Shown: piece after piece, positions 12,450-53,524 of the stretch
How the letters are laid out: each line of letters begins with the position of its first letter
How positions within the stretch are numbered: position 1 is the first letter of the stretch
Origin: Candidatus Muiribacterium halophilum
Lineage (GTDB): Bacteria > Muiribacteriota > Muiribacteriia > Muiribacteriales > Muiribacteriaceae
Assembly (NCBI GenBank): GCA_023228995.1
Contig: JALOAD010000010.1
Span: 11,688 to 75,687 of the forward strand
Length of the DNA stretch: 64,000 bases
Reading direction: 5' to 3'
Made by a program: the position numbers and the translations under genes
The notes under the pieces: model-generated
What the model was told of the DNA's origin: nothing
The model's database searches: none
What the model saw: the letters and a program-made list of their open reading frames with translations, nothing else

Positions 12450-12614
12450 ATATTCCTCCGCATTTATTACTTTCCTTAATTATAAGGAGTAATTTATACA
12501 TTGGTCAAGTGATTTTTTTTATTGATTTTAAAATTTCTATTATGTAATATAAAAGTTTAGAGTTTAATGTTGTTTATAGGTTTTATAAATTTTAATTTAT
12601 TATGGGGATATACA

Positions 12615-14393: not shown

Positions 14394-15045
14394 AATCGCT
14401 GATATTGTTAGAAGTGTTGTTGGTGAATACAGGGGAGATGAAAATGAAAAATACAATAATAATAATAAAAAAGTTTCTTTAAATTCTTTTCCTGTATCTG
14501 TTTCAAACAGACATATTCATATTTGTAAATCTGATTTAGAATGTATTTTTGGAAAAGGATATGAATTAAAAAGGATGAAAGAGCTTTCTCAGCCTGGCCA
14601 ATTTGCATGTGAAGAAAAAGTTATTATTGTTGGACCTAAAGGAAGTATTGAAAATGTTAGAATACTTGGACCTGAAAGAAAAGAAACTCAGGTAGAAATA
14701 AGTGTTACTGATACTTTCAAATTAGGAATTCCTGTTTTTGTAAGAGATTCTGGAGATCTTTCAGGAACTCCTGGTCTTACAGTATGCGGCCCTAAAGGCA
14801 GTGTTTATATTGAAAAAGGTGCAATAGTAGCTAAAAGACATATACATTTTTCTGAAAATGATGCAAAAAAATTTAATGTTAAAGATAAAGAAAAAGTTAA
14901 TGTTTTAATAGAAGGCGAAAAAGGCGGAATTTTCTCTGATGTTCTTGTTAGAGTATCAAACTCATACGCACTTGATATGCATATTGATACAGATGAAGGA
15001 AATGCTTTTGGAATAGGGAGAAATACTAAAGGTCAGATTAGTTAA
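14380..15045 (+). CDS. pduL: Phosphate acyltransferase PduL/EutD-like (PTAC) with N-terminal encapsulation-peptide-like helix
   Basis: Duplicated PduL half-domains (VSNRHIHI... and AKRHIHFSEND); N-terminal amphipathic NEIADIVRSVVGEY; overlaps aspS stop by 14 nt. Confidence 0.85.
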   Translation: MDKNEIADIVRSVVGEYRGDENEKYNNNNKKVSLNSFPVSVSNRHIHICKSDLECIFGKGYELKRMKELSQPGQFACEEKVIIVGPKGSIENVRILGPERKETQVEISVTDTFKLGIPVFVRDSGDLSGTPGLTVCGPKGSVYIEKGAIVAKRHIHFSENDAKKFNVKDKEKVNVLIEGEKGGIFSDVLVRVSNSYALDMHIDTDEGNAFGIGRNTKGQIS

Positions 15046-15163
15046 AAAATAATATAAATCAAGTTTAATTGAAAAAACTGAATTTTTGTTTTAAACTTTA
15101 AAAAGTGAAAAAATTATAGTTCTTTTTTTAATTTAGTAAAAAACATATTGTGGAGGATTTATA

Positions 15164-15445
15164 ATGAACAATGCTTTAGGTATGATTGAAACTAAAGGTT
15201 TGGTTGCAATGATTGATGCTGCTGACGCTATGGTTAAAGCAGCTAATGTAAAACTTGTAGGATATGAAAAAATTGGTGGTGGTTATGTGACAGCTCTTGT
15301 AAGAGGAGATGTTGCTGCTGTTAAAGCTGCTACAGAAGCTGGAGCTCAGGCTGCTTCAAAAATCGGTGAACTTGTATCAGTACATGTAATCCCAAGACCA
15401 CATGAAAATCTCGAAGATATTCTTCCTATTGGAAAAGCTGAATAA
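15164..15445 (+). CDS. BMC-H hexameric shell protein (PduA/EutM type)
   Basis: Canonical BMC domain [53 protein letters not shown]. Confidence 0.95.
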
Positions 15446-15449
15446 TTAG

Positions 15450-15722
15450 ATGATTTTAGGAAAAGTTATAGGGACAATTGTCTCTACTAAAAAAGACGAG
15501 AGACTTGTTGGGTTTAAACTTCTTGTTGTAAGAGAATATGATGTTAAAATGAATCCGACAAGTTCTACTGTCGTTGCAGTAGATACAGTGGGTGCAGGTT
15601 TTGATGAGTTAGTTCTAGTGGTCAGCGGTTCATCTGCTAGACAAACTGCTAAGACTGATAAAAAACCTGTTGATGCTGCAATTGTAGGAATTGTCGATTC
15701 TGTAAGTCTTAAAGAGGAGTAA
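15450..15722 (+). CDS. BMC-P pentameric vertex protein (EutN/PduN/CcmL family), copy 1
   Basis: MILGKVIGTIVSTKKDERLVGFKLLVV ... AVDTVGAG motif. Confidence 0.9.
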   Translation: MILGKVIGTIVSTKKDERLVGFKLLVVREYDVKMNPTSSTVVAVDTVGAGFDELVLVVSGSSARQTAKTDKKPVDAAIVGIVDSVSLKEE

Positions 15723-15725
15723 AGT

Positions 15726-17150
15726 ATGAGTCTTGATCATAATGAAATAAAAAATATTGTTGAAGAAATAGTAAAAAAAATTGCTGTTGATAATTATGCG
15801 ACAAAATCCGCATCAACTGGATTAAATACTGGAAAGGTTCTCGGAAAAGGTATTTTTTCAAATATGGAAGATGCTGTTAATGCTGCATATTATGCTCAAA
15901 AAGATTTAATAAAATTAAGTGTTGAAAAAAGAAAAGAGATAATTACAGAAATACGTAAGATAATGCTTGAGAATGCAGAAAAATTATCTGTAGAAGCAAT
16001 TAAAGAAACTGGTATAGGTAGAGTGAAAGATAGGCTTTTAAAAACACTTCTTTCAATAAATAAAACTCCTGGAGTAGAAGATATACAATCGAAAGTTTAT
16101 ACTGGTGATAAAGGTATGACGCTTGAAGAGTATGCTCCTTATGGACTTATTGGAGCAATTACACCGACTACTAATCCAGTAGAATCTATAATTAATAATT
16201 CAATAAGTATGATATCCGCTGGAAACTCTGTTGTATTCAATACACATCCAAGAGCTAAAAATGTTTCAAGAAAGACAATTGAATTAATAAATGAAGCGAT
16301 TATAAGTGTTGGTGGACCAAATAATACAGTAACAACAGTTGCAGAACCAACTATAGAAACTGGGACTTTTATGATGAAACATCCTAAGGTTAAACTTATT
16401 ACTGTAACTGGTGGACCTGGAGTTGTAAAAGCTGCTTTTGCATGTGGTAAAAAAGTAATTGCAGCAGGACCCGGAAATCCTCCTGTTGTTGTTGATGAAA
16501 CTGCTGATATAAAACAGGCAGCTAAAGATATTGTTGATGGAGCTTCATTTGATAATAATGTTTTATGTATTGCAGAAAAAGAAATTATTGCTGTTAAAGA
16601 AATTTATAGAGAATTAATTGATGAAATGCAAAAACATGGTGCTGTGCTTGTAAGTTCAGATGTAGTTGCAAAATTAGCTCAAGTTGCTTTATTGCCTGAT
16701 GGCAGAGTTAATTCTGCCCTTGTTGGCAAAGATGCAAAATTTATACTTTCTCAGATTGATATGCATGTTGGCGATGATATTAGACTTATAATGTGCGAGA
16801 CAGATAGAAATCATCCTTTTGCAGTAGAAGAACTTCTAATGCCTATAATTCCTGTTATAAGGGCTGATAATGTTGATGAAGCAATTGAAATGGCTTATGA
16901 GCTTGAACATAATTTTTTCCATACTGCTATGATGCATTCAAAAAATGTTGAAAATCTTCATAAAATGGCGAGAAAATCTAATGTTTCAATATTTGTAAAA
17001 AATGCACCTTCTTATGCTGGTCTTGGCTTTAATGGAGAAGGAGTAACTACATTTACTATAGCTTCTCCAACTGGTGAAGGTATTACAACTGCTAAAACTT
17101 TTACAAGAATGAGAAGATGTGTTCTGGCTGGATATTTTAGAATTGTCTGA
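15726..17150 (+). CDS. CoA-acylating aldehyde dehydrogenase (EutE/PduP-like) with N-terminal encapsulation-peptide-like helix
   Basis: ALDH fold about 470 aa with a catalytic Cys region (NVLCIAEKE); N-terminal amphipathic EIKNIVEEIVKKI. Confidence 0.88.
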   Translation: MSLDHNEIKNIVEEIVKKIAVDNYATKSASTGLNTGKVLGKGIFSNMEDAVNAAYYAQKDLIKLSVEKRKEIITEIRKIMLENAEKLSVEAIKETGIGRVKDRLLKTLLSINKTPGVEDIQSKVYTGDKGMTLEEYAPYGLIGAITPTTNPVESIINNSISMISAGNSVVFNTHPRAKNVSRKTIELINEAIISVGGPNNTVTTVAEPTIETGTFMMKHPKVKLITVTGGPGVVKAAFACGKKVIAAGPGNPPVVVDETADIKQAAKDIVDGASFDNNVLCIAEKEIIAVKEIYRELIDEMQKHGAVLVSSDVVAKLAQVALLPDGRVNSALVGKDAKFILSQIDMHVGDDIRLIMCETDRNHPFAVEELLMPIIPVIRADNVDEAIEMAYELEHNFFHTAMMHSKNVENLHKMARKSNVSIFVKNAPSYAGLGFNGEGVTTFTIASPTGEGITTAKTFTRMRRCVLAGYFRIV

Positions 17151-17161
17151 GGTGTTTTTTA

Positions 17162-18475
17162 ATGATTGATAAAATAGAAAAAGCCGGTATTTCCGGAGCT
17201 GGTGGAGCTGGATTTCCTACTTTTTTTAAATTGGGAGCAAAAGCTGAATATTATATTATAAATGCAGCTGAATGTGAACCATTACTTGAATCTGACAGAA
17301 ATATAATGCTTCGTAATGCTGAAAAAATAATATCAGGTATTAAAAAAGTAAAAAAAATAATTGATTTTAAAAAAGCATATATTGGAATTAAACAAAAAAA
17401 TACTGATTGTGGTGAATTGTTAAAGAAATTTATTGATGTTGATTATATTGAAGTGAAAATTCTTAAAAATATTTATCCTTCCGGTGATGAACAGGTAATG
17501 ATATATGAAATACTTGGTAAAATTGTTCCTGAAGGTGGCATACCACTTAATATTGGTGTAATTGTAAATAATGTTGAAACTGTATATAGGATTGAAAAAG
17601 CAATTTCCGAAAATGAGGTTTTTAATAAAAGATATGTTACTGTAAATGGTGAAATAGAAAAACCTTGTGTTATGGAATTACCTTTAGGTATAAGTTTTTC
17701 AGATATTCTTGAATTTGCTGGCAAAAAAAAAGGTATTAATTATATCGCTATTGACGGCGGTCCTATGATGGGAAAAATTACTGATATAAAAGATGGTGTC
17801 GTCAAAAAAACTACAAGTGGTATTTTATTTCTTTCAGAAAATCATGAACTTATATTAAGAAAAACTCAGTCTATAAAAAATATATTTGCACAGGCACAGG
17901 CAAGTTGTTGTAATTGTATGACATGTACAGAATTGTGTTCAAGATATCTTATAGGTCATAGAATGGAACCGCATAAAATAATGAGAGCTTTGTGTTCTCA
18001 GAATTTTGATGAAAAGATTTTTGAATATGCTACTTTATGTAGTGAATGTAATATATGTGAGCTTTATGCTTGTCCAATAAATCTTTCTCCAAAGACTGTA
18101 AATCAGTTTCTTAAAGAAAAATTCAGAAAAGAAGGCAAAAAAATAAATATAAAAAAAGATAGTTATGAAGCTCCTGAAGAAAGAAGTGGAAGACAAATTC
18201 CTTCAGATAGAATTATAAACAGACTTGATATAAAAAAATATTATAAAAAACTTGAGTTTAAAGATGAAATTCCTGAATTTACCAAGGTTTTTTTAAAACT
18301 TTCTCAACATATAGGTGCTCCATCTAAACCTATTGTAAGTGTTGGTCAGAATGTTAAAAAAGGTGATATTATAGCAGAGAAAAACGGTAATTTATCAATG
18401 CCTCTACATTCAAGTGTTGATGGCAAGGTAGTGGAAGTTGGTTCTGATACTATAATAATAGAGGTTTCAATATGA
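17162..18475 (+). CDS. PduS/RnfC-like Fe-S flavoprotein
   Basis: RnfC-type N-terminus (GISGAGGAGFPTFFKL, INAAECEP); two Cys clusters (CCNCMTCTELC, CSECNICELYACP); C-terminal barrel-sandwich-like domain. Confidence 0.8.
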   Translation: MIDKIEKAGISGAGGAGFPTFFKLGAKAEYYIINAAECEPLLESDRNIMLRNAEKIISGIKKVKKIIDFKKAYIGIKQKNTDCGELLKKFIDVDYIEVKILKNIYPSGDEQVMIYEILGKIVPEGGIPLNIGVIVNNVETVYRIEKAISENEVFNKRYVTVNGEIEKPCVMELPLGISFSDILEFAGKKKGINYIAIDGGPMMGKITDIKDGVVKKTTSGILFLSENHELILRKTQSIKNIFAQAQASCCNCMTCTELCSRYLIGHRMEPHKIMRALCSQNFDEKIFEYATLCSECNICELYACPINLSPKTVNQFLKEKFRKEGKKINIKKDSYEAPEERSGRQIPSDRIINRLDIKKYYKKLEFKDEIPEFTKVFLKLSQHIGAPSKPIVSVGQNVKKGDIIAEKNGNLSMPLHSSVDGKVVEVGSDTIIIEVSI

Positions 18476-19017
18476 ATTGTTTAGGTATGCTTGAATATAA
18501 AAGTGTTTCAGCCGGAATTAAAAGCTGTGATACTGTTTTAAAAGCTGCTAATGTAAAATTATTATACAGTATGCCTGTATGTGCTGGAAAATATATTATA
18601 ATTGTAAGAGGAGATACTGGAGCTGTATATGCTGCAATTGATGCAGGTAAACAGGTTTCTGTATTTAATCTTGTAGATTCAATAATAATACCTAATCTTC
18701 ATAAAGATATTTTTCCTGCTTTAACAGCATCAGGTAATGTAGGAAAAATTGAAGCTCTTGGTTCGGTTGAAAGCTATTCTATTGCTGCAACTATAATAGC
18801 TGCTGATATAGCTCTTAAAACTGCTGATATTAGAATGATTGAGATTAGAATAGCAAAAGGACTTGGGGGAAAATCCTATTTTAATTTTACAGGGGAAGTT
18901 GGTGCAGTAAGAGAAAGTGAAAAAACTTGTATAAAATATCTTGAGGATAATGGATGGCTTGTATATTCATGTGTAATACCTAATCCACATCCTTCACTTG
19001 CGGAGAAATTGTATTGA
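18472..19017 (+). CDS. BMC-T tandem-domain shell protein (PduT-like)
   Basis: Two BMC domains in 181 aa; Cys at the pore-loop position (SMPVCAGKY) as in PduT. Confidence 0.85.
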   Translation: MNCLGMLEYKSVSAGIKSCDTVLKAANVKLLYSMPVCAGKYIIIVRGDTGAVYAAIDAGKQVSVFNLVDSIIIPNLHKDIFPALTASGNVGKIEALGSVESYSIAATIIAADIALKTADIRMIEIRIAKGLGGKSYFNFTGEVGAVRESEKTCIKYLEDNGWLVYSCVIPNPHPSLAEKLY

Positions 19018-19169
19018 AAAAATTGATATTATATTTTTTTCTATTTATCATTGGATTGATTTTATTATATTTTGTGGATGCAAAAGCAGAGAATATTTTT
19101 GGAATAATTGCCCCATTGTTTATTGTTTTTGTGATAATTTTTATTTTTTATGATAATAGAGTTGTCTGA
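19014..19169 (+). CDS. Putative small two-TM membrane protein (51 aa), TTG start overlapping the BMC-T stop
   Basis: TTGA start/stop overlap; GGAG 8 nt upstream; product MKKLILYFFLFIIGLILLYFVDAKAENIFGIIAPLFIVFVIIFIFYDNRVV has two hydrophobic helices. Confidence 0.35.
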   Translation: MKKLILYFFLFIIGLILLYFVDAKAENIFGIIAPLFIVFVIIFIFYDNRVV

Positions 19170-19195
19170 ATTTATACTAACTTAGGGGAACTATA

Positions 19196-20272
19196 ATGGA
19201 CCGAGAAATTATGGGTGAAAAAGAATTAAAAGAAAATAGCGTTAATGAAAACATTGCTCCTCAGGAGAATACTTCAGATACAAATAATAATACACCTAAA
19301 AACAATGGCGAAAAACATGCTCATTATGTATTTAAAATCTCTTTTAATGAAATTCATAATGAATTTAATGGTGCAATGGTACTTATGGGTGATACTCAGG
19401 AAAGTAATTTTTCTTCAATAGATGTTGTTATGGATAAAAGTTTTACTCTTTCTATTGATACAGACTGGAATGCTTATCTTGAATTTATACGAAAAAAAAG
19501 AAAAGATGTTCAGGATAGCGGTTCTAATTTTCTTATATTTATTAGAAAGTTAGAAAGTTATTTTAAAAAATCTATTTCAAATGTAAAAATTGATAAGATA
19601 AACAAAATAATCGTAACTACAGAAGATGATATGCTGAGAAATGTTCTTATTAAGAATATAATTGAATCTGAGCTTTCTTCGCTTATAGGGCATGGATTTG
19701 AGGTTGAAACAATCTTAAAAGATGAAATAAAATATTATTTTAAAGAAAATACTAGTAATTTAGCATCTGAAAACTCAGAAGAATCAAATTCATCAGATCA
19801 GAATTTATCTAAAGAAATTATACTTGATGCAATTCCAATGATTGATCCAAATGAAGGTATTAAAGCAAGTGATATAAAAGTAGGTGATAGAATATTTGTA
19901 AGAATTACTGATGATTCAACTGTTGGAAAACATATAGCAAGATCTATTACAAAAACCGATAATCCCGAAGAAATTCCTGTAAGAACTCCAGTTTTTAGTG
20001 CAAAGAAAAATATTATTTCAAAATTTAGAGCATCTTCAGAGGTAATGGAGTTAATGGTTAAGTTTGATGAGGGTGTTTTTGGAAAGGTTGTTGTTCAAAC
20101 TGAAGTTAGATTAAGATCTAAACTTGATGATGAAAAGGAAATAAAAAAAGAAGATGATATACAAGAATCTGAGTATGATGAAAACGAAAAATCTGATTTT
20201 ATTCCTTATATAATTTTAATTGGTGTTGTTTTTATGATATTATATGGAATAATAACATTTCTGGGGAATTGA
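19196..20272 (+). CDS. Hypothetical acidic protein with a C-terminal transmembrane helix, inside the BMC locus
   Basis: No recognisable domain; Asn/Glu/Ser-rich N-terminus and linker; C-terminal FIPYIILIGVVFMILYGIITFLGN helix. Confidence 0.6.
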   Translation: MDREIMGEKELKENSVNENIAPQENTSDTNNNTPKNNGEKHAHYVFKISFNEIHNEFNGAMVLMGDTQESNFSSIDVVMDKSFTLSIDTDWNAYLEFIRKKRKDVQDSGSNFLIFIRKLESYFKKSISNVKIDKINKIIVTTEDDMLRNVLIKNIIESELSSLIGHGFEVETILKDEIKYYFKENTSNLASENSEESNSSDQNLSKEIILDAIPMIDPNEGIKASDIKVGDRIFVRITDDSTVGKHIARSITKTDNPEEIPVRTPVFSAKKNIISKFRASSEVMELMVKFDEGVFGKVVVQTEVRLRSKLDDEKEIKKEDDIQESEYDENEKSDFIPYIILIGVVFMILYGIITFLGN

Positions 20273-20274
20273 TT

Positions 20275-20964
20275 ATGAAAATTGCTATAGCGTCAGATCA
20301 TGGTGGATTTTTTTTAAAAGATCATTTAATTAAATTTTTAAGAGAAAAACATGAAATTATTGATCTTGGTTGTAAATCAGCTGATGATAAAGTCGATTAT
20401 CCTGATTTTGCTGTAAAGGCAGCAGAAAATGTAAGAGATAAAAAAGTTGATTATTCTATTATGATAGATGGAGCAGGTGTAGGTTCTACAATGGTAGCTA
20501 ACAAAGTTCAGAATGTTAGGGCTGCATTATGCAATGATCTTTATTGTGCTAATAATTCTAAAGAGCATAATAATGCAAATATGCTAATAATGGGTTCAAT
20601 GGTAGTTGGTTTAGGTTTAGCAGAAAAAATAGTTAATACTTTTTTAGAAGTTGAATTTGCTGGCGGAAGGCATGAAGCTAGGGTTGAAAAAATAAATTTG
20701 CTTGATAAAGTCAGGAGTATGTTTATGAATAATGATAATATTAAAGAAATGATTAAGGATATTGTTGTGAAAGTATTAAAAATGGATGTGAATTCTAATT
20801 TAAAAATAAATAATGATGATTTACCTGAATTTAGTGAAAAAGTACTTACAGAAGAATATCTTAAAAAAAATAATATAAAAAAAATCAGAATATCTTCAAA
20901 AACAATAATACTTCCTCTGGCAAATGATTATATTCTTGCTAATAAAGTCGAAGTTATAAGATGA
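20275..20964 (+). CDS. rpiB: Ribose-5-phosphate isomerase B with a C-terminal extension of about 85 aa
   Basis: MKIAIASDHGGFFLKDHL ... GGRHEARVEKI RpiB/LacAB core of about 143 aa, then an extension containing amphipathic IKEMIKDIVVKVLKM. Confidence 0.85.
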   Translation: MKIAIASDHGGFFLKDHLIKFLREKHEIIDLGCKSADDKVDYPDFAVKAAENVRDKKVDYSIMIDGAGVGSTMVANKVQNVRAALCNDLYCANNSKEHNNANMLIMGSMVVGLGLAEKIVNTFLEVEFAGGRHEARVEKINLLDKVRSMFMNNDNIKEMIKDIVVKVLKMDVNSNLKINNDDLPEFSEKVLTEEYLKKNNIKKIRISSKTIILPLANDYILANKVEVIR

Positions 20965-21242
20965 ATATTGGAAAAGTTACCGGGAATATAGTATCATCTC
21001 ATAAATATCCTGGGTTTACTGGAACAAAATTAATGCTATTGCAACCTGTTGATTCTATGTATAAAAATGCAGGTAATATAATAATTGCTACAGATAGTGT
21101 AGGAGCAGGAAATGGCGAGTATGTGATTTATATCACAAGTTCAGAAGCTTGTATTCCTTTTGTGGATGTTGTAAAATATATACCGACAGATGCAACAATT
21201 GTTGGTATAATTGATAAAATAGATATAATGCAGGAAAGTTAA
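20961..21242 (+). CDS. BMC-P vertex protein, copy 2
   Basis: MNIGKVTGNIVSSHKYPGFTGTKLMLLQPV ... ATDSVGAG. Confidence 0.88.
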   Translation: MNIGKVTGNIVSSHKYPGFTGTKLMLLQPVDSMYKNAGNIIIATDSVGAGNGEYVIYITSSEACIPFVDVVKYIPTDATIVGIIDKIDIMQES

Positions 21243-21244
21243 TA

Positions 21245-21529
21245 ATGTTTTTAGCAAAAGTTATTGGAAATGTTGTTTCATCGCATAAAAACATTGAGCT
21301 TAACGGCAAAAAACTTCTTGTTGTAAAGAAGATTAATCCTGTAGATTATAAGACTTTTGGTAAGGATATAATTGCAATAGATACAGTTGGAGCTGGGAAT
21401 GGTGAGATTGTATTTCTTGTTAAAGAAGGATCAGTTGCACAACAGCTTCTTGATAATAAAAATGTACCAGTACATACAGTTATTCTAGGAATAGTTGATA
21501 AAATTGATATTACGGAGGAGAAAGTATGA
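21245..21529 (+). CDS. BMC-P vertex protein, copy 3
   Basis: [27 protein letters not shown] ... AIDTVGAG. Confidence 0.88.
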
Positions 21530-21792
21530 GGAGAGCTCTGGGAATGGTTGAAACTAAAGGGCTTATTAGCATGATTGAAGCATCAGATGCTATGGTGAAA
21601 GCTGCTAATGTTGAACTTGTAGGATATGAAAAGATAGGAAGTGGTTATGTTACTACAATGGTCAGAGGAGATGTTGGAGCTGTAAAAGCTGCTGTTGAAG
21701 CTGGAGCTACTGCTGCTGCAAGAGTTGGAGAATTGGTTTCTACTCATGTTATTCCTTCTCCACATGAAGATGTTGAAAAAATCCTTGGCTGA
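21526..21792 (+). CDS. BMC-H hexameric shell protein, copy 2
   Basis: [53 protein letters not shown]. Confidence 0.95.
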
Positions 21793-21804: not shown

Positions 21805-22611
21805 ATGAATAATTATAATGAACTTGTTGAACTTATCACAAGAGAAGTTCTAAATGAAATTGGAAAAAAAGGAGAATCAGTATTTTTAAAGTCTAATATT
21901 AAAAATATTGTAAACTCTGAAATTTCTAATTTAGAAAAAAAAGATAATAATGAAATAGCATCTTATATAGATCATACGCTTTTAAAACCAGAAGCTTCAG
22001 AAGAAGAAATAATTAAAATTTGTAAAGAAGCTATGGAATATAATTTTTGGTCTGTATGTGTTAATCCAACATGGGTGAAGACTGCTTACAGTATTCTTAA
22101 AGATTCTAAAGTAAAAGTTTGTACTGTTGTAGGATTTCCTCTTGGAGCAACACCAGGTGAAGTAAAAGCATTTGAAGCTGATAGAGCTATTAAAGATGGT
22201 GCTTCTGAAGTTGATATGGTTATAAATATTGGTTATATAAAGAGTAAAAAATTTGATGAAGTAAAAGAAGATATAAAAAAAGTAAAACAAGCTTGTGGAA
22301 ATACTTTGCTTAAAGTTATACTTGAAACTTGTCTTTTAACTTCTAATGAAAAGATAAAAGCATGTGAAATCTGTAAATCAGCAGGTGCTGATTATGTGAA
22401 AACATCAACAGGTTTTAGCGTATCAGGAGCAACAGCTGAAGATATTGCACTTATGAGAAGAATTGTAGGTGAAGATATGGGTGTAAAAGCTTCTGGTGGT
22501 GTGAGAGATTCAGAAGGTGCATTAAAAATGATAAAATCAGGTGCAAGCAGAGTTGGTGCTTCAGCATCTATTGCCATAGTAAAAGGACAATATGATCATA
22601 CTGGTTATTGA
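21805..22611 (+). CDS. deoC: Deoxyribose-phosphate aldolase with N-terminal encapsulation-peptide-like helix and linker
   Basis: DERA core from [10 protein letters not shown] with Schiff-base motif [10 protein letters not shown] and KASGGV; first 50 aa form an amphipathic helix ([15 protein letters not shown]) plus an Asn/Ser-rich linker. Confidence 0.9.
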
Positions 22612-22630: not shown

Positions 22631-24790
22631 ATGAAATTAACTAAAACTCAGATATTAAGTCTTTTTGATACATTAATATCAAAAACTTTATATCTGGGTT
22701 CTTCTTTTTTTAAGAGAATTGATGAAGCTCAAAGATATAATCAGGATACAATCGAAATTTTACCCTTTCAACTTGAAAATATAAGTCAAATAAAAAACTC
22801 TGATAATTTTAAATGGAGTCTTCTTATAGGTTATCCATTAGGTATTGAAAGTACTAATGCCAAATTATATGAAATTGAGAAAAGCCTTGAATTTGCAATT
22901 GACGAAATAGTACTAATGCCAAATTTATGCTGGCTTAAAGATGGTGAATATGAAAAAATCAGAAAAGAATTAAGTATAATAAAAGAAAAAGTTAGAATTC
23001 CAGTAAAAGTTATACTCAACAATATTCTTATTACTAGAGAAGAATTTGAAAAGCTCGCACAGATTACCGAAAATATGGGAATAATACTTATTCATTCTTA
23101 TGAAAATCTAAATGTAGAAAAAGAAAAGACCAAATCAAAATTTATTAGACAAACAAATTTTAATGGACAACTTGTAAGGGTAAAACTCAGAAATAAAGAA
23201 ATAATAACAGAAAAAATATCTGGATTTGATACTATTTTTAGAGGAAGAAATATAAATTCAGGTTATTTATGGAAAAATAATATATTTCAGTATAATTCTT
23301 TTGATTTTTTAAATAAAATAATAATAACACCAGGTACTTTAGCTGGAAGCGGCATTTCAGCCTCGTCTGTTTTATCAGTTGGATTTAAATCTCCTATGAA
23401 TGAGGGAATAAAAAATCTTGAATTAGAGTGTTTGTTTAGTGATAGGCTTATGGCATGCGGTATCAAATCATTAGTTATTGATGAAATTGCTGACGAACTT
23501 TCTATAATATATATTGCAAAAGATAGAATTGAGATAATACCTACTCCTGAATATGAAAAAATGGATATTTCAATTTTGTTTGAAAATATCAGACAAGAGT
23601 ATGGAGATGTTTCTATAATAGGCATTGGACCTTGTGGAGAAGAAAAATTTATATCATCAACAATAGTTGCAACAGATCATGAAGGAAATCCAGCTATAAT
23701 GCCATCCAGAGGTTCTGGTATTGGTGCAATATTTGGTTCTAAAAAAATAAAAGCTGTAATAATAGAAAATATTAAACAAAATAGCTTTTTTTCAGAAAAA
23801 GAAAATAAACTTATAAATTCTTTTGAAGAACATCTTATAGAAAATACAATATCTGGAAGAATGCTTCCAAGACATTCTACAATGGGTTTTTTTGAAGTTA
23901 ATAATATGCTTTCTTGTCTTCCATGCGAAAATTATAGGAAATCTTCGCTTGATAACAGCATTATAAAAAATATAATGGATGATTTTAAATCTAAATTTGA
24001 TTTGACAAGATCAGAAAACAATATTGTTCGTTTTTTTAATAAACAAAAAAATAAATTTAGAAATATTAATTATATTGATTTTGCAGGTCTGGCATTGGTA
24101 AACGGAATATACGATATAGATATTTTTTTAGATTTATATGAGTGGTGTTTTGAAAAAGGTGTTGATCCGATTGAAATCGGAGGAGCTTTTGCAGTTGCAA
24201 ATGAAGCTGGTATAATAACAAGTAATGGATTAAATTCTGATTTTTTGGATAATATTTTTGAAAACGATGATTGGAGAACAAAAGTTATACTTCAAGGTGG
24301 AGCAATTGCATCTAAAACTTTAGGAATAGGAAGAGCTCCTGTAATAAATGGCGAAGTAATGCTTCCTTATGATATAAGATCTATGGTACTTTCGGGTATT
24401 GCTCAAAAAAACGGTATATCAAATGATGAAAGTAATAATTTTTCTCAATCTTATTATTATTCATTTAGAGATATATCTAATATTGAGGATAAATTGGAAG
24501 AAATTAATATTAATATGGAACATCTTAGTACAGCATTGAATGTTCTTGGGCTTTCAAGATATTGTATATTTGCTTTTCTTAAAAATACAAAAATGTTCAA
24601 TCTTGTGATTGATACTATAAATTCGCTTTATAATTCAAAATTATTAAGCGGTGATATACTTAAAATTTCAAGGCAAGTTTTAAAATCAGAACAAAAATTT
24701 AACAATAAATGCGGTTTGTATTATAATTATAATATTCCGTCCTTTTTTAGAGAAGAGCAAAATAGCAAAGGAAATATATTTAAATATTAA
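22631..24790 (+). CDS. Fusion of a degenerate DeoC-like TIM-barrel domain with an aldehyde:ferredoxin oxidoreductase (AOR/GAPOR-family)-like protein lacking cofactor ligands
   Basis: aa 60-190 align to the DeoC of this locus (LLIGYPLGIESTNAKLYEIEKSLEFAIDEIVLM vs [32 protein letters not shown]) but lack KTSTGF; aa about 200-380 match the AOR N-domain (KSPMNEG..., IGIGPCGEEKF..., RGSGIGAIFGSKKIKAVII); C-terminal domains align but the CxxCxxxC cluster ligands are absent. Confidence 0.6.
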   Translation: MKLTKTQILSLFDTLISKTLYLGSSFFKRIDEAQRYNQDTIEILPFQLENISQIKNSDNFKWSLLIGYPLGIESTNAKLYEIEKSLEFAIDEIVLMPNLCWLKDGEYEKIRKELSIIKEKVRIPVKVILNNILITREEFEKLAQITENMGIILIHSYENLNVEKEKTKSKFIRQTNFNGQLVRVKLRNKEIITEKISGFDTIFRGRNINSGYLWKNNIFQYNSFDFLNKIIITPGTLAGSGISASSVLSVGFKSPMNEGIKNLELECLFSDRLMACGIKSLVIDEIADELSIIYIAKDRIEIIPTPEYEKMDISILFENIRQEYGDVSIIGIGPCGEEKFISSTIVATDHEGNPAIMPSRGSGIGAIFGSKKIKAVIIENIKQNSFFSEKENKLINSFEEHLIENTISGRMLPRHSTMGFFEVNNMLSCLPCENYRKSSLDNSIIKNIMDDFKSKFDLTRSENNIVRFFNKQKNKFRNINYIDFAGLALVNGIYDIDIFLDLYEWCFEKGVDPIEIGGAFAVANEAGIITSNGLNSDFLDNIFENDDWRTKVILQGGAIASKTLGIGRAPVINGEVMLPYDIRSMVLSGIAQKNGISNDESNNFSQSYYYSFRDISNIEDKLEEININMEHLSTALNVLGLSRYCIFAFLKNTKMFNLVIDTINSLYNSKLLSGDILKISRQVLKSEQKFNNKCGLYYNYNIPSFFREEQNSKGNIFKY

Positions 24791-24811: not shown

Positions 24812-25978
24812 TTGAAAAGAATTTGTATTGTAGTACTTGATAGTGTTGGGGTTGGTTATCTTCCTGATGCTCATGAATATAATGATTTTGGAGCTAATAC
24901 TCTTTTACATATAGATGAAAATACAAAGATGAATTTACCTAATATGGAAAAACTTGGTCTTGGTAATATTATAGATTTTAAAAATATAAAAAAAGAAGAA
25001 AATCCAACAGCATGCTATGGTAAAATGGCTGAACTTTCAAAAGGTAAAGATACAATTACCGGACATTGGGAAATTGCTGGTATTGTACTTGAAAAACCTT
25101 TTCCAGTTTATGAAAACGGATTTCCAGAAGATATTATTAAAAAATTTGAAAAATTGACTGGAAAAAAAGTTATTGGAAATAAACCCGCAAGTGGTACAGA
25201 AATATTAAAAGAACTTGGAGAAAAACATTTAAGTACAGGTGCTCTTATAGTTTATACATCAGCTGATAGTGTTTTTCAAATTGCAGCACATGAGAGTTTG
25301 ATTCCTGTTGATGAACTTTATGATATTTGCATTAAAGCAAGAAAGCTTCTTACTGGTGAACATAGTGTTGGAAGAGTTATAGCAAGACCTTTTAATGGAA
25401 ATAACAAAGATGATTTTAAAAGAACACAAAATAGAAAAGATTTTCCTTTAAGACCTTATGAAAATATGCTTGAAAAATTAAAAGAAAACGGTCTTGATGT
25501 AATGGCTGTTGGCAAAATAGAAGATATATTTGCTGGTTACGGAATTACTTTATCATCTGGACATAATGATAATAATAAACATGGTGTAGATAATACTATT
25601 AAATTTTTAAAAGAAAAAAATAATGGTTTAATATTTACCAATCTTGTTGATTTTGACATGGTATATGGTCATAGAAATGATTTTAAAGGATATGCAAAAG
25701 CATTGGAAGAATTTGACTCTATGCTTCCAAAATTAATGAATAGTATGAAAGAAGACGATATTTTAATTATAACAGCAGATCATGGATGTGATCCTTTGTT
25801 TCCTGGAACAGATCATACAAGAGAATATGTACCACTTATTGTTTATGGCAAAAATATAAAAAAAGGTGTAAATCTAGGAATTAGAAAAGGATTTAACGAT
25901 ATATCTGCAACTGTATTAGAATATTTTAATATTGAAAAAATTACCGGTGAGTCATTTCTCGGGGAGATAAATGTCTAA
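24812..25978 (+). CDS. deoB: Phosphopentomutase
   Basis: [16 protein letters not shown]-terminus and ITADHGCDP metal-site motif; TTG start 4 nt after GGGAGG. Confidence 0.9.
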
Positions 25979-28088
25979 ATTTGATGAAGTTATCTTTAAA
26001 TTAAATAGCCGAAATATTAAAGAAAGAATTGAAGCAGTTACTGAACTTGGTGATTTAGGTGATCCTAGAGGTGTTGAATATCTTATAAATAATCTTCCTG
26101 AACTTCATTCAGAATTGAGATTAAATATAATAAGAGCATTAAAAAAAATAAAAGATCCGTCAGCAAGTGGTCCACTTATAGTAGTTTATGATGAAACTCC
26201 TTCTCAGATAATAAGGCATGAGATAATAAATGCATTGCTTGCAATATGTGATGATCATTCTATAAACAAACTTATGCAGATTGTAAATGATATTACAGAA
26301 GAAATATATCTTCGTGTAACTATACTTAAAGAAATAACAAAATTTAGATTAAAAGATTCTTCTGATATAATTAATACTTCGGTTTCTTTGTTAAAAGATA
26401 AAAATGTAGAGATTAGAAAAAATGCTCTTAATCTAATAAATGAGTATAGAGTTAGAAATATTCAAAATTATCTTTTCCCTCTTTTAAAAGAAGATGATAT
26501 AGAAGTTAGAAATAAAGCTCTTGTATATCTTTATAAAACCGAAGGCGAGGTAGTGATTAACAAAGTTATAAATATTCTTTCATCCAATCAAGTTGATAAT
26601 AATGATAAAGCAAAGATAGTTGAGGTGCTTGGAAGTATTAGAGTTGAAAAAGTTGTTAATCTTCTTAAAAAACTAATTATATGTAATATTGAAATAATCA
26701 GAAAAAATGCTATTTTTTCTCTAGTCCATACAGGCGAGAAGGGAATACATGAAGAAATTTCCAAAAGATTAAAAGATAATTCAGCAGAAGTTAGAAAAGC
26801 TGCACTTACAGCACTTACTAATATCAAAGCTTCTATGTATGTAAAAAATATTATTCCATTAATAATGGATAAAGATGAAGGTGTTAGAACAGATGCAGTT
26901 TATGCTCTTAAAAATCTTATCAATACAGTTGATCTTATTAAACTTGAACCTTTGATGAAAAATCCAAATCTAAATGTTGTAAGAGCTGTTCTTGAAGTAT
27001 TTGCAGATAAAAAATATGTACCAGCGGGTTTTTATGATTTAATTAATTCTCTTTATACTTCAGATGATGATATAATAAAAAAAGTTGTAATTCGTATTCT
27101 TGGTATTAATAAAGATAAAAAAGCTTTTGATAAACTACTTTTGCTTTTTTCAGGCGGAAGTGAAAATATAAAAATAGATATACTCTATAATCTCAAAGAG
27201 TTTAAAAGTCTTTACACTGTGCTTATTCCATCACTTTTTGAAAAATATAAAGATGAGGATTCAGAAAAAATCAGAGCTGTTATGACTGATATAATTGCAC
27301 TTGGTAATGATAGAGAAAGTGGTAAAATATTACTTTATATTGTTAAAAACGAGACAGATGGCCGAACCAAAAGTAATGCTGTTGAAGCATTAGAAAATTA
27401 TGTTGATATAATTGATGAGGTAGATTTGGTAAATACAATAATGCCTTGTCTTAAAGATAGTAACAATAGGGTTAAAGCTAATGCTGCTAAAGCATTGTGG
27501 ACACTTGGCGGGCTTAGAATGGTATCAATGCTTGAAGATATGCTTAGAAGCGAGGATAGATGGCAGAGAGCGAGTGCATGCTTTGTGCTTGGTGAGATTG
27601 CAGCTATTCAGGTTGTACCTGTGCTTAAAAGATGTCTTGATGATTCTGAGGATGTTGTAAGAGGAAATGCTGTAAAAGCACTTGCAAAATGTGGTGAATT
27701 TGATGTAGTGCATGATTATATATCAAAATATAATTCAGAAACAGATGTTGTTAGGCAGGCTATTGTTTTTTCATGTAGATTTTTTAATAATGATGAAACT
27801 AAAGAATTTCTTGTTAATATGCTTGAAGAAAAAAATGCTAATATTTCAAAAGAAGCTGCTTATTCAATAAAATTCCTAATAAAAGAAGATATATATCTTG
27901 TTGAGAAAGTATCTTATAAGATTGAAAAACTTGATAAAGAAATTATAAAAATACTTGTTGACCCTATAGGAGACTCTCAGAGTTCATTTGCACTTGAACT
28001 ACTCGAAAGATTAAGTTATTATGATGATATTGAGATATCTTCAAAAGCATCAAATATATTAAAAAAGGTAAATAAAGTTGCATTATAA
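25971..28088 (+). CDS. HEAT-repeat (PBS-lyase HEAT-like) protein, 705 aa, translationally coupled to deoB
   Basis: About 20 repeats of the ...D(p)xxRVRxxAxxALgxig form ([38 protein letters not shown]); ATG overlaps the deoB stop by 8 nt. Confidence 0.75.
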
Positions 28089-28851
28089 AAAAAATTTAAT
28101 AATTAGTCTTGTATTGATTGCCTCTGTAATTTCTATATCGTGTAAAAGAATTCCAGCACCATCAGGAAGAAACAGAGCTGTTGTATCAAAGACATCATCA
28201 GAATATTACACAATATCAAAAGGAGATACTCTTTTTTCTATATCCAAGCAATTTAATGCGAGTATAGATTATCTTCAAAAAGTTAATAATATTAAAAATC
28301 CTAATTTCCTTCATATAGGACAAAAAATTTATGTTGGAAAAAAAGAGATAAAGCTTGATAGCAGTGGAGATATAAAAAAAGATAAAAAAATAGTTTCTAA
28401 TAATAAAAATACAAAAGTAACAAAAATAAATAAAGATAAACCTAATTCTAATGTTAATATAAAAAACTATAATGTAAAAGCATTTATAATAATGCCGTCC
28501 AACGGAGAAATTCTTTATAAATTCAATGATATGAAAAACGGTATAAGAGTTGAAGGTATTGAGATAAAAAATAACAAAGATACTTTTGTAAAAGCAACAG
28601 CTTCAGGTGATATTGTTTATGTTGATGAAGATGAAAAAAATAAAATATTAATAATTGATCATAAAAATAATTTTTATACAGTTTATTCAGATTTAAAAAA
28701 AGTTACTGTTAAAATGGGAGATATAGTTAAGGGTGGGGAAGTAATTGGAAGTACAGAACAGGGAAAAAGCTTTTATTTTGAGCTAAAAAGATTTCAAAAT
28801 GAAAACAATCCTGTCGCTGTAAATCCTGATTTTTATATTTTGCAGAAATAA
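28078..28851 (+). CDS. LysM / peptidase-M23-like (LytM-domain) lipoprotein
   Basis: Signal peptide/lipobox-like ISISCK; LysM (YYTISKGDTLFSISKQFN...IGQKIYV); C-terminal M23 fold that may be degenerate; overlaps the HEAT gene stop. Confidence 0.7.
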   Translation: MHYKKNLIISLVLIASVISISCKRIPAPSGRNRAVVSKTSSEYYTISKGDTLFSISKQFNASIDYLQKVNNIKNPNFLHIGQKIYVGKKEIKLDSSGDIKKDKKIVSNNKNTKVTKINKDKPNSNVNIKNYNVKAFIIMPSNGEILYKFNDMKNGIRVEGIEIKNNKDTFVKATASGDIVYVDEDEKNKILIIDHKNNFYTVYSDLKKVTVKMGDIVKGGEVIGSTEQGKSFYFELKRFQNENNPVAVNPDFYILQK

Positions 28852-31099: not shown

Positions 31100-31420
31100 G
31101 CTTTGGGATATTATGACTTCAGCATAGATTGCTGACAAGTCAGCATTTTTGAGCTTCGCTCAAGTCTTAAACCTAGTTTTACTTGTAAAACTATATAGTG
31201 AGCAAAGCAAACCAGGCTGTTGAAAAACTAAAAAAATCAAAGATTGATACAAAATAGGGTCTGTGCCGAACTCTAAATTTAGCTTACATAGATCGGCCTG
31301 ACCATGCTGTTTATTTTTAAAGTTAATTTTGAAAAAAGAAAACTGCATTTTTCAACAGCCTCGAACTATGATGTCAGACTGATATTATCAGTTTCTGACA
31401 TCATAGTGCATTTATGCACT
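31100..31420. other. Intergenic island with raised GC and many hairpins (candidate structured ncRNA or MITE-like element)
   Basis: About 400 nt between convergent genes; 13-bp perfect inverted repeat GGCTGTTGAAAAA (31214-31226) / TTTTTCAACAGCC (31350-31362); 14-bp stem ACTATGATGTCAGA/TCTGACATCATAGT (31365-31406); smaller hairpins at 31131-31144, 31149-31163, 31176-31193. Confidence 0.3.
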
Positions 31421-32126: not shown

Positions 32127-32657
32127 TTGTGGTATTATGAACCTATGTTTCAGTTTATAAAATACCTTATACATAGAAAGACCATGGTCAGAGCTTTTGA
32201 TATGCTCGATGAGCACAGGTTCAAAAAAGCTTATGATATTTTTATACATCTTATTGAAAATAAAAAAATGGATAATTTTTTTATTAATCTTAATATTGGT
32301 AGAGCTTTAACTGGTATGAAAAAATATGAAGAAGCAAGGAAATATTTTTTAAAATCTTATAATCAGTTTTCTCTTAATCCAGTTCCATTAAATGGAATAG
32401 CTCTTACTTATATAAAACAAAAAAAATATGCTCATGCTTATAAATATATAAAAAAAGCAATTAATATCGATAAAATTCATCCTATATCAAATTATTATAT
32501 GGGAATTGTTCTTATCGGACTTGGTCATGCTGAAAGATCTCAGATTTATTTTGAAAAAGTGCTATCTGAAAAAAAAGATTTTCTCTATGCAAGAATGGCT
32601 TTATTTATTGAAAAAAACCTTAATCTTGAGACAGGAACGGATTTAGGTGAGTTCTAA
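32127..32657 (+). CDS. TPR-repeat protein
   Basis: TPR-like Y/A/L helical repeats (ARKYFLKSY, AYKYIKKAINID). Confidence 0.6.
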   Translation: MWYYEPMFQFIKYLIHRKTMVRAFDMLDEHRFKKAYDIFIHLIENKKMDNFFINLNIGRALTGMKKYEEARKYFLKSYNQFSLNPVPLNGIALTYIKQKKYAHAYKYIKKAINIDKIHPISNYYMGIVLIGLGHAERSQIYFEKVLSEKKDFLYARMALFIEKNLNLETGTDLGEF

Positions 32658-52817: not shown

Positions 52818-53524
52818 TGAATAAAAAAGCTTTCACTTTAATTGAAGTTACGGTTGCAATTGCTGTATTTGCTATGCTTTCTGTTTTAATATCAAATATT
52901 TTTTTTTCAGGCTCAAGAGCTTATAGAAAAGAAATTAGAAACTTTACTATTCTTGATAGAGGAAGATTTCTGTTTATAAAAATTAGAAATGATATTAGAA
53001 ATGCTAATTCAATATTATATCCTGATGATAATGGTAAAGAATCTGAAAAACTTGTACTTTTAAAACATAAATTTGACTTTAATAAAAAACCGGAAGATAC
53101 TCCTGGTTTTAATGAAGCTTCGATTTATTTTGATAATATAAAAATTGAATATTCACTTGAAGAACATACAGATAAAGATGAAAAAGATCTTTATAGAGAT
53201 CTAAAAAAACTTATTAGAAAAGAATATACTGCTAAAATTAGTGGAGATAATGTTATATATAATCTTGAGTCAGAAGATATTATAAGTCATAATATTGAAA
53301 AATTGATTTTTTTAAGAAAAAAGCTTGTTGCAAAAATTCCAGGTGATAAAATTGAACCTGAAGAGGGTGGCATTGCACCTGAAAATGTTAAAATAGAAGT
53401 TTTATTTAAAAGTTATAGAGATGAAGATTATAGTCTTTCTTTAGATCAGATAAAAAAATATTATTCAGTGAGATTTTCTACATATATTAATTCCAGAGGA
53501 AATTTTTTAGGAGGTAGTATATGA
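52814..53524 (+). CDS. Prepilin-type N-terminal domain protein (minor pilin-like)
   Basis: MMNKKA/FTLIEVTVAIAVFAMLSVL. Confidence 0.7.
   Translation: MMNKKAFTLIEVTVAIAVFAMLSVLISNIFFSGSRAYRKEIRNFTILDRGRFLFIKIRNDIRNANSILYPDDNGKESEKLVLLKHKFDFNKKPEDTPGFNEASIYFDNIKIEYSLEEHTDKDEKDLYRDLKKLIRKEYTAKISGDNVIYNLESEDIISHNIEKLIFLRKKLVAKIPGDKIEPEEGGIAPENVKIEVLFKSYRDEDYSLSLDQIKKYYSVRFSTYINSRGNFLGGSI

Follow-up and report, generated by a model that had tools for sequence, protein, structure and literature searches.

A conserved two-module pseudoenzyme, built from a DERA remnant and an AOR-like protein, is encoded between deoC and deoB at a microcompartment locus of Candidatus Muiribacterium halophilum

Results

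A fusion of two degenerate enzyme modules

A 64,000-nucleotide stretch of DNA from Candidatus Muiribacterium halophilum (assembly GCA_023228995.1, contig JALOAD010000010.1, positions 11,688 to 75,687; hereafter 'the window') carries, between deoC and deoB and downstream of a set of SPU-type microcompartment genes, an open reading frame (ORF; 22631–24790, + strand) for a 719-residue protein in which a remnant of the aldolase DERA is fused to a cofactor-less module of the aldehyde:ferredoxin oxidoreductase (AOR) family. The residue losses seen in both modules, together with the purifying selection acting on the gene, support the conclusion that this fusion protein is a conserved two-module ('double') pseudoenzyme. 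Indeed, it is an enzyme homolog, it has lost its catalytic residues and it has been retained under purifying selection, which is how a pseudoenzyme is defined operationally. A protein identical to it (100%) is deposited at NCBI as 'hypothetical protein M0R46_05225' (Ca. Muirbacterium halophilum), and the fusions in general are annotated publicly either as 'hypothetical protein' or as 'AOR N-/C-terminal domain-containing protein'. In the NCBI taxonomy the species is assigned to Ca. Muiribacteriota. An initial annotation of the DNA had correctly given the position and length of the ORF and three motifs of its product (KSPMNEG, residues 253–259; IGIGPCGEEKF, residues 330–340; and RGSGIGAIFGSKKIKAVII, residues 360–378). 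Its central claim, that both halves are true homologs of DERA and AOR and that each is devoid of the defining catalytic or cofactor residues, was borne out by profiles, alignments and Foldseek comparisons.

The AlphaFold2 model of the fusion, generated from a 101-sequence alignment, has a mean pLDDT of 90.4 and a pTM of 0.77, and comprises a helix at residues 5–23 (pLDDT ∼ 60), five β/α units, a disordered linker at residues 157–170 and then the AOR body. The N-terminal 25 residues (MKLTKTQILSLFDTLISKTLYLGSS; 22631–22705, +) are homologous to helix α0 and strand β1 of DERA and are modelled as an amphipathic helix. They are followed by the DERA-like partial barrel (residues 26–156, strands β2–β6; 22706–23098, +), for which TIGR00126, BLASTP, phmmer (to 4xbs) and Foldseek all provide evidence. 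The inter-module linker (residues 157–178; 23099–23164, +) is the least conserved region of the protein and is partly disordered, with pLDDT values < 50 at residues 157–170. The remainder is made up of AOR domain 1 (residues 179–385; 23165–23785, +) and AOR domains 2–3 (residues 386–719; 23786–24787, +).

The N-terminal module is a DERA barrel remnant

The NCBIfam deoC profile (TIGR00126) matched residues 29–152 of the fusion over profile positions 23–147 of 211 (E 1.8e-12, 47 bits; cut-off 117), and a direct BLASTP comparison with the neighbouring DeoC gave 21% identity across 157 residues (E 1e-11). The Pfam DeoC model (PF01791) gave no match to the fusion protein at E ≤ 1, which is why public annotation shows the AOR domains only. 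At the structural level, Foldseek matched the model to solved DERAs at E ∼ 1e-5, with 125–134 residues aligned of ∼ 220 and a root-mean-square deviation of ∼ 2 Å over ∼ 130 of them. The strands of the modelled module fall at residues 40–43, 61–66, 92–95, 125–129 and 152–155, which amounts to roughly 60% of a barrel; a complete (βα)8 barrel is not formed. Since the five strands run directly into the disordered linker, the N-terminal module is best described as a barrel remnant rather than as a full TIM barrel. Thus the homology to DeoC in the initial annotation's 'TIM-barrel-like' segment holds, whereas the whole barrel does not, the module consisting of five β/α units and an N-terminal helix.

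The loss of the Schiff-base lysine motif (KTSTGF) proposed in that annotation was upheld in alignments to solved DERAs and to four microcompartment-associated DeoC proteins, which place His155 (codon 23093–23095, +) at the lysine position. The general-acid aspartate (motif EVDMV) is replaced by Val94 (codon 22910–22912, +) and, as β7 and β8 are absent, the second lysine (GVKASGG) and the phosphate-binding loops are gone. Compared with class I DERA (TIGR00126), therefore, the fusion retains homology over β1/β2–β6, including GYPLG (GFPLG in DERA), the K..E motif and N98, but it ends after β6 without the aspartate, either lysine or the phosphate loops. As judged from its sequence, the DERA-like module is unable to form a Schiff base or to bind phosphate. 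This state is shared across the family described below: in every member the module is cut short, ending at deoC profile position 156 or earlier, and while the general-acid aspartate is kept in P0012 and P0014, a convincingly aligned Schiff-base lysine was found in no member.

The C-terminal module has the AOR fold without its cofactor sites

Residues 179–719 form a full three-domain AOR fold. Pfam AFOR_N (PF02730) matched residues 180–379 (E 1.3e-32, 113.6 bits; cut-off 29.8) and AFOR_C (PF01314) residues 398–713 (E 9.6e-10, 38.6 bits; cut-off 27), while phmmer aligned the protein with 1AOR at E 6e-15. The AlphaFold2 model was superposed by Foldseek on Pyrococcus furiosus AOR (1aor_A) over 584 columns with a target-normalised TM-score of 0.80 (E 2.6e-30), and it also superposes on all other solved AOR-family structures.

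To compare individual residues, the 1AOR sequence (residues 7–601) was rebuilt from the HMMER alignment, its numbering was checked against known ligands, and it was aligned with nine fusion proteins and 99 stand-alone relatives; P. furiosus AOR numbering is used in what follows. In domain 1, R76, N93 and R182 are replaced by V247, E264 and I356 respectively. All four [4Fe-4S] ligands are lost, C288, C291 and C295 corresponding to S461, N464 and F468 (24011–24034, +) and C494 to S642 (24554–24556, +). Elsewhere in domains 2–3, E311 is changed to N, E313 to I, D338 to F, T344 to P, D489 to N and H448 to E (or to D in another alignment), and the glycine-rich RG-G loop has gained one residue. T243, Y312, D343 and Y427 are kept. 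An independent phmmer alignment to 1AOR gave the same assignments for R76, N93, the CxxCxxxC block, D338, D489 and C494, and the ortholog P0004 carries KCQHCVIRC and LGIC where the window protein has lost its cysteines.

Among the 99 stand-alone relatives, R76, N93, R182, E313, H448, D489 and the cysteines are 85–99% conserved (the cysteines 95–99%), position 338 is Asp or Asn in 89%, and E311 and T344 are conserved in ∼ 80%. T243, E313, Y427, H448 and the cofactor and Fe-S ligands are likewise reported to vary very little across the family (PMC13328260; PMC12096430). The claim of the initial annotation that the CxxCxxxC ligands have no counterpart and that pterin-contacting residues are substituted is therefore accurate, most pterin and second-shell positions being changed. 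On this alignment, the AOR module has lost both the [4Fe-4S] cysteines and the residues that hold or flank the tungsten/molybdenum bis-pyranopterin. With catalytic and cofactor residues lost from both modules, neither ancestral reaction should be possible by known mechanisms.

In comparison with the AOR/WOR family at large, the fusion keeps the three-domain fold, matches to both Pfam profiles and the motifs KSP, GPxGE and GSKxIKA; it differs in its extra N-terminal DERA-like module, its long branch and its want of [4Fe-4S] cysteines. The suggestion that it is GAPOR-like was not sustained. Archaeal GAPOR belongs to the same superfamily and would be a logical partner for DERA by using its glyceraldehyde 3-phosphate, but the GAPOR model NF040818 gave no match to the fusion at E ≤ 1 and scored the nearest stand-alone relatives at 20–36 bits against a cut-off of 1300. 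Nothing else points to GAPOR; the protein belongs to the AOR family at large and branches within a clade of uncharacterised ∼ 570-residue proteins. A putative metal site at C429-x-x-C432 was also rejected, as the pair is not conserved (P0002 and P0003 each have a single cysteine there). Genes for pyranopterin biosynthesis or tungstate transport were not found in the 64-kb window, which says nothing about the rest of the genome.

Separately, five stand-alone AOR relatives (P0122, P0135, P0148, P0150 and P0155) keep the four cysteines and have no R76, N93 or R182 in the alignment. A misalignment may explain this, or the five may belong to additional AOR lineages that are pterin-less or very divergent.

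The fusions form a small, ancient family

An exhaustive hidden Markov model search of 1.84 billion representative proteins returned ∼ 3,700 AOR relatives, and the N-terminal module was also covered in only about seven 50%-identity clusters (P0003, P0009, P0010, P0012, P0014, P0020 and P0004), with P0003 representing the window clade and P0004 coming from a word-indexed search. A word-indexed profile search with all fusions recovered group I (see below) and generic AORs only, and one with the N-terminal domains alone returned a single 103-residue fragment. Scanning genome contigs with group II added one locus, at the end of a Ca. Wallbacteria contig; scanning metagenome contigs added no further fusions, the output being swamped by generic AORs that match GSK[KN]IKAI.

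The fusions fall into three deep groups with between-group identities of 15–28%, and the architecture of ∼ 720 residues is preserved down to 15–25% identity. Group I (the window protein, P0002, P0003, P0004 and P0009/P0169) comes from Muiribacterium-type metagenome-assembled genomes (MAGs) and has shell genes upstream. Group II comprises P0010, P0012 and P0014, and a Ca. Wallbacteria MAG (phylum Ca. Walliibacteriota) encodes a relative 59% identical to P0010. Group III is represented by P0020, which again has shell genes upstream. Fusions are thus found in Muiribacteriota, Walliibacteriota and one further lineage.

N93, R182, D338, T344 and H448 are substituted in all family members. The Fe-S cysteine quartet, by contrast, is kept in P0004 and P0009 (group I), P0010 (group II) and P0020 (group III), and is lost from the window subclade, P0012 and P0014. 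The description 'cofactor-less' consequently fits the window subclade, but not those four orthologs, which have the four Fe-S cysteines without the pterin-site residues.

In a neighbour-joining tree of 31 sequences (Kimura distance) the fusions were monophyletic in 141 of 200 bootstrap replicates and sat on long branches inside the clade of ∼ 570-residue stand-alone AORs, with the topology (III,(I,II)); groups I and II were joined in 182 of the 200. A neighbour-joining tree of 108 sequences built from uncorrected distances, in which the fusions were paraphyletic, was set aside in favour of the Kimura tree. Together, the tree and the residue pattern suggest that the modules were fused once, in the distant past, that the pterin site was lost early and that the Fe-S ligands then disappeared on at least three separate occasions. 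The closest stand-alone AORs lie in archaeal loci, an amino-acid catabolism locus and a TRAP transporter/Fe-ADH locus; these contexts are unrelated to deoxyribose and so give no hint of the ancestral substrate.

The fusion gene is under purifying selection

Comparison with the 85%-identical ortholog at locus L012 gave a dN/dS of 0.072 for the fusion gene as a whole. The DERA-like module had the lowest ratio (0.025), followed by AOR domain 1 (0.07) and AOR domains 2–3 (0.10); all these values are approximate since dS is near saturation (pS 0.63). The same comparison gave similarly approximate ratios of 0.09 for DeoC, 0.14 for DeoB and 0.07 for AldDH. Despite the approximate ratios, the finding of strong, enzyme-like purifying selection on the fusion is robust, and it indicates a functional pseudoenzyme rather than a decaying gene.

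The fusion gene is linked to deoB and to a microcompartment locus

The genes of the window run in the order aspS, PTAC, BMC-H, BMC-P, AldDH, RnfC/PduS-like, BMC-T, a 358-residue protein of no recognised family, RpiB, BMC-P, BMC-P, BMC-H, DeoC, fusion, DeoB, HEAT-repeat protein and LysM-M23 peptidase. The SPU-type microcompartment genes, from PTAC to BMC-H, occupy 14380–21792 (+; Pfam and NCBIfam scans). They are followed by a bona fide DeoC/DERA (21805–22611, +; TIGR00126, 301 bits, cut-off 117), of which residues 1–49 are an encapsulation peptide and linker. On the other side of the fusion lies the phosphopentomutase DeoB (24812–25978, +; NF003766, 554 bits, cut-off 256). No compositional boundary separates the microcompartment genes from the fusion.

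The deoB gene lies directly downstream of the fusion in all nine loci with downstream sequence. The spacing, visible in eight of them, ranges from a 4-nt overlap to 130 nt; in L001 the called frames overlap further, probably because the start was set too far upstream. Loci L012, L001 and L013/L014 have the same arrangement as the window. L011, which encodes the most divergent fusion (P0020), has BMC-H, RpiB, BMC-P, BMC-P, BMC-H, DeoC, fusion, DeoB, HEAT and M23, such that the block from RpiB through BMC-P, BMC-P, BMC-H, DeoC, fusion, DeoB and HEAT to M23 is common to groups I and III, that is, across the deepest split of the tree. Within 7.5–10 kb upstream, neither shell genes nor DeoC were found at the three group II loci, and the same is true of the 3.3 kb available on the Wallbacteria contig. 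The statement that the gene lies inside a BMC operon is hence correct for the window and fails as a general rule, deoB being the universal neighbour. Genetically, the fusion is tied to deoB first, and second, and probably ancestrally, to the DeoC/RpiB/shell module.

Sutter et al. (2021; PMC8217296), in their catalogue of microcompartment loci, assign to SPU1 the locus in the MAG 'bacterium BM706' (locus tags C0601_117xx) that is orthologous to the one described here. They list Wallbacteria with SPU7/SPU2 loci, which lie elsewhere in the genome than the fusion gene and have the aldolase in a satellite location. These catalogue data make it plausible that group II fusions co-occur with SPU organelles at the level of the genome. 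The window shares DeoC, RpiB, AldDH, PTAC, a PduS-like protein, a BMC-P triplet, BMC-H and BMC-T with SPU1–SPU7 loci. It differs from them in the fusion, which appears from the consulted parts of the catalogue to be a lineage-specific addition: neither an AOR-like protein nor a phosphopentomutase is listed for SPU loci in its general SPU notes, its SPU1, SPU2 and SPU7 entries or a term search of its supplement (PMC8217296), and in the same material AOR does not feature among the cargo proteins given for any SPU type.

Encapsulation signals

Canonical amphipathic encapsulation peptides are present on DeoC, AldDH (EIKNIVEEIVKKI), PTAC (EIADIVRSVV) and, internally, RpiB (LKEMIKDIVVKVL); in DeoC, AldDH and PTAC a linker of low conservation comes after the peptide. 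Orthologous loci have retained the peptides, with the DeoC motif being kept in L012, L001, L013 and L011. DeoB has no encapsulation peptide of the canonical type and, in contrast with the neighbouring microcompartment-targeted DeoC, none of the type found on the four cargo enzymes is appended to the fusion. A C-terminal tail of the fusion (FFREE...G..F) considered as a candidate peptide turned out to be an ordinary AOR C-terminal motif.

The N-terminal helix of the fusion (residues 5–23) is conserved and homologous to DERA α0/β1, and has no linker behind it. The N terminus itself, MKLT(K/R), is conserved, and the first 25 residues are the most conserved segment in group I (92, 84 and 72% identity versus ∼ 45% elsewhere); this segment is absent in group II. 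Such conservation is suggestive of a binding element, although it could be read in other ways.

Two of the cargo enzymes have extensions. RpiB (20269–20964, +) carries ∼ 85 residues after the isomerase domain, containing the peptide-like helix and a block KVLTEEYLKKNNIKKI...TIILPLA.DYI.ANK; L012, L001, L013 and L011 share this conserved extension, which the 147-residue RpiB of the shell-less locus L008 does not have. The DeoC of L011 (8479–9921, +; 480 residues) consists of an encapsulation peptide, an extra domain of ∼ 230 residues whose end is rich in cysteine (CERSCSNVPAASNCDGSNCSQCGQCF), and an entire DERA barrel in which KTSTGF is intact. It recalls the 'flavoprotein+DERA' fusions of Hodarchaeales microcompartments (PMC12747264).

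Discussion

What the fusion may do

A possible reading, and the one tentatively preferred here, is that the fusion is a non-catalytic adaptor of a DeoB/DERA/microcompartment module for deoxyribose-phosphate catabolism. The fusion would be co-produced with the peptide-less DeoB, to which it would most likely bind, and its DERA-like module would mimic a DERA protomer and so dock on the peptide-bearing DERA. The conversion of deoxyribose 1-phosphate (dR1P) to deoxyribose 5-phosphate (dR5P) would thereby be brought to, or into, the SPU microcompartment, within which DERA and AldDH would process dR5P and acetaldehyde. The Fe-S cluster of some orthologs would be dispensable for such a role.

Several points weigh against this adaptor. 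Its proposed protein–protein contacts are deduced from context, and no appended encapsulation peptide of the cargo type would take it into the shell. Group II has no shell genes near the fusion, and its link to microcompartments depends solely on a phylum-level statement in the catalogue. The conserved gene order extends to dnaG and rpoD, so that part of the synteny may be historical rather than functional. SPU microcompartments are present in 26 phyla and the fusion in at most about three lineages, which means that it is not a general SPU component. The dN/dS values are approximate, as noted above, and a cryptic new catalytic or ligand-binding activity would be compatible with the sequence.

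The prominence of deoB allows for another arrangement, in which the fusion would be a cytosolic partner or regulator of phosphopentomutase, independent of the microcompartment, and its adjacency to SPU genes a matter of lineage history. It is consistent with deoB being the sole universal neighbour, in frames that often overlap or nearly abut, with shell-less group II loci whose surrounding genes serve nucleotide salvage (short RpiB, UPRTase, dCMP deaminase and acetate kinase), and with the lack of an encapsulation peptide on both DeoB and the fusion. This arrangement is nevertheless somewhat unlikely: the order shell–DeoC–fusion–DeoB was kept across the deepest split of the family, and all nameable lineages with the fusion are reported to have SPU loci in the catalogue sections consulted. 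Moreover, it was a remnant of DERA, not of DeoB, that was fused, which points to the DERA step.

Another alternative takes the proposal of the initial annotation, a lumen scaffold, in its strict sense. The fusion would then nucleate cargo, being assembled out of catalytically dead versions of pathway enzymes, and would tie DERA and further cargo together within the SPU shell, much as the carboxysome protein CcmM does in its own setting. CcmM combines a γ-carbonic-anhydrase-like domain, inactive in some species, with RbcS-like SSUL modules. Like CcmM, the fusion would be microcompartment-associated and built from catalytically silent folds of pathway enzymes, and a functional analogy is possible. 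However, the multivalent CcmM contains SSUL repeats as well as flexible linkers, and its nucleation of cargo has been demonstrated experimentally, whereas the fusion, known here from its sequence, has one DERA-like module and no repeats, and the AOR fold is not a known SPU cargo. A scaffold would account for the position of the gene beside shell, RpiB and DeoC genes in groups I and III, for a module that could imitate a DERA protomer, and for the unusually conserved, predicted helical N-terminal 25 residues of group I; multivalency could come from oligomerisation, which is common among AOR-family proteins. Even so, a strict scaffold is unlikely. The canonical encapsulation peptide and flexible linker of the operon's four cargo enzymes are missing from the fusion, its two folded modules and single short linker contrast with the repeats or long disordered regions that scaffolds typically have, group II keeps the fusion and deoB without nearby shell genes, and the fusion is absent from other SPU types in the portions of the catalogue covered.

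That the protein is still an enzyme, with a metal or pterin held by non-canonical residues or with a newly acquired activity towards an aldehyde or sugar phosphate that needs no cofactor, is improbable. Its fold is complete and very confidently predicted, equivalents of T243, Y312, Y427 and D343 are present, purifying selection equals that on real enzymes and some orthologs retain the Fe-S cysteines. Set against this, the window protein lacks all four cluster ligands, R76, N93, R182, E313, D338, T344, H448 and D489 are substituted, the RG-G loop contains a one-residue insertion, the DERA part has neither Schiff-base lysine nor phosphate site, and the cysteines have been lost repeatedly and independently, which indicates that the protein can do without redox chemistry. 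The loss of catalytic residues in both halves and the shortened DERA part might raise the suspicion of a decaying pseudogene, or of an artefact of assembly or gene calling that joins a deoC remnant to an AOR gene. This is effectively ruled out by the intact frame of 718–768 residues in more than eight independent assemblies across three deep clades, by low dN/dS in each region and by the conserved MKLT(K/R) N terminus.

An extended form of the preferred adaptor joins several of these elements. The fusion would then be a dedicated adaptor or organiser subunit of SPU metabolosomes in Muiribacteriota, Walliibacteriota and relatives, and the first metabolosome counterpart of CcmM. Its dead half-DERA would dock on encapsulated DERA and its cofactor-free AOR body would hold DeoB, with the shell or its interior as the place where dR1P is converted and cleaved. 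In addition, no AOR-family member before it would have been shown to work without pterin and, in some lineages, without Fe-S. So much taken together is doubtful.

Novelty and implications

The architecture appears not to have been described before, as the initial annotation had supposed: it was found neither in the literature searches nor in the SPU catalogue text and supplements searched. Full-text literature searches returned no paper linking AOR-family proteins with microcompartments and DERA in such a sense, and none treating an AOR as a pseudoenzyme. A 2026 classification of > 4,000 WOR proteins includes no aldolase fusion or microcompartment context, and the UniProt entry of the Muiribacterium ortholog is absent from its supplements.

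Recent reviews call the AOR/WOR cofactor and second-shell residues nearly invariant across > 4,000 members. A clade maintained by selection after the loss of the pterin site would show that the large AOR fold can be reused for a non-redox job, and the later losses of the Fe-S cluster, which happened repeatedly, add weight to this. Few microcompartment types are as widespread as SPU organelles, and a pseudoenzyme tying together DeoB, DERA and shell genes provides a concrete, testable hypothesis on peptide-less enzymes such as DeoB. In addition, the AOR-domain annotation could mislead metabolic reconstructions into assigning an aldehyde:ferredoxin oxidoreductase activity that, to judge from the residues lost, is almost certainly absent. 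The significance is limited by the narrow, uncultured host range and by a function deduced from sequence and context.

Neighbouring genes and other features of the window

The start of PTAC (14380) overlaps the end of aspS (14393) in the region 12567–15045 (+). From there to 31032 the genes all run in one direction, separated by short gaps or overlapping. A single clean terminator-like hairpin (31130–31145) follows this gene array. Consensus scans for promoters and terminators in this 25–33% GC DNA gave counts not above those of shuffles, and no Rfam families or tRNAs were found in the window. Upstream of PTAC, L013 has a chromate transporter on the opposite strand. The aspS ortholog of L012 (29–1814) appears as four short ORFs in the ENA assembly, which is probably the result of assembly frameshift errors and not a real pseudogene.

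The 358-residue protein encoded between BMC-T and RpiB (19196–20272, +) has no Pfam or NCBIfam match. Its N-terminus is acidic and of low complexity, and its C-terminal segment (FIPYIILIGVVFMILYGIITFLGN) is hydrophobic and transmembrane-like; a membrane-anchor-like protein is unusual in a microcompartment operon. Its slot is conserved, with products of 358 residues in L012, 350 in L013 and 340 in L001 (a weak DUF4899 match), and in L001 and L013 an extra ORF of 62–68 residues lies just upstream of it.

After deoB, a HEAT-repeat protein (∼ 700 residues, with weak NblB/CpcE-like matches) and a LysM-M23 peptidase are encoded in overlapping frames, both in the window (25971–28851, +) and in L005, L007, L011 and L013, so that groups I, II and III are all represented; L008 has a 118-residue ORF in place of the HEAT gene. 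In group II loci an LpxL-like acyltransferase, an Elm1-like protein, dnaG and rpoD come next, and this synteny spans at least two candidate phyla. Further downstream, the window contains three very large ORFs at 32647–37506 (1619 residues), 43383–47390 (1335 residues) and 53521–56256 (911 residues), all on the + strand, which sit among genes for TPR, pilin-like (N_methyl), VWA and SH3 proteins; the 911-residue product has no Pfam match.

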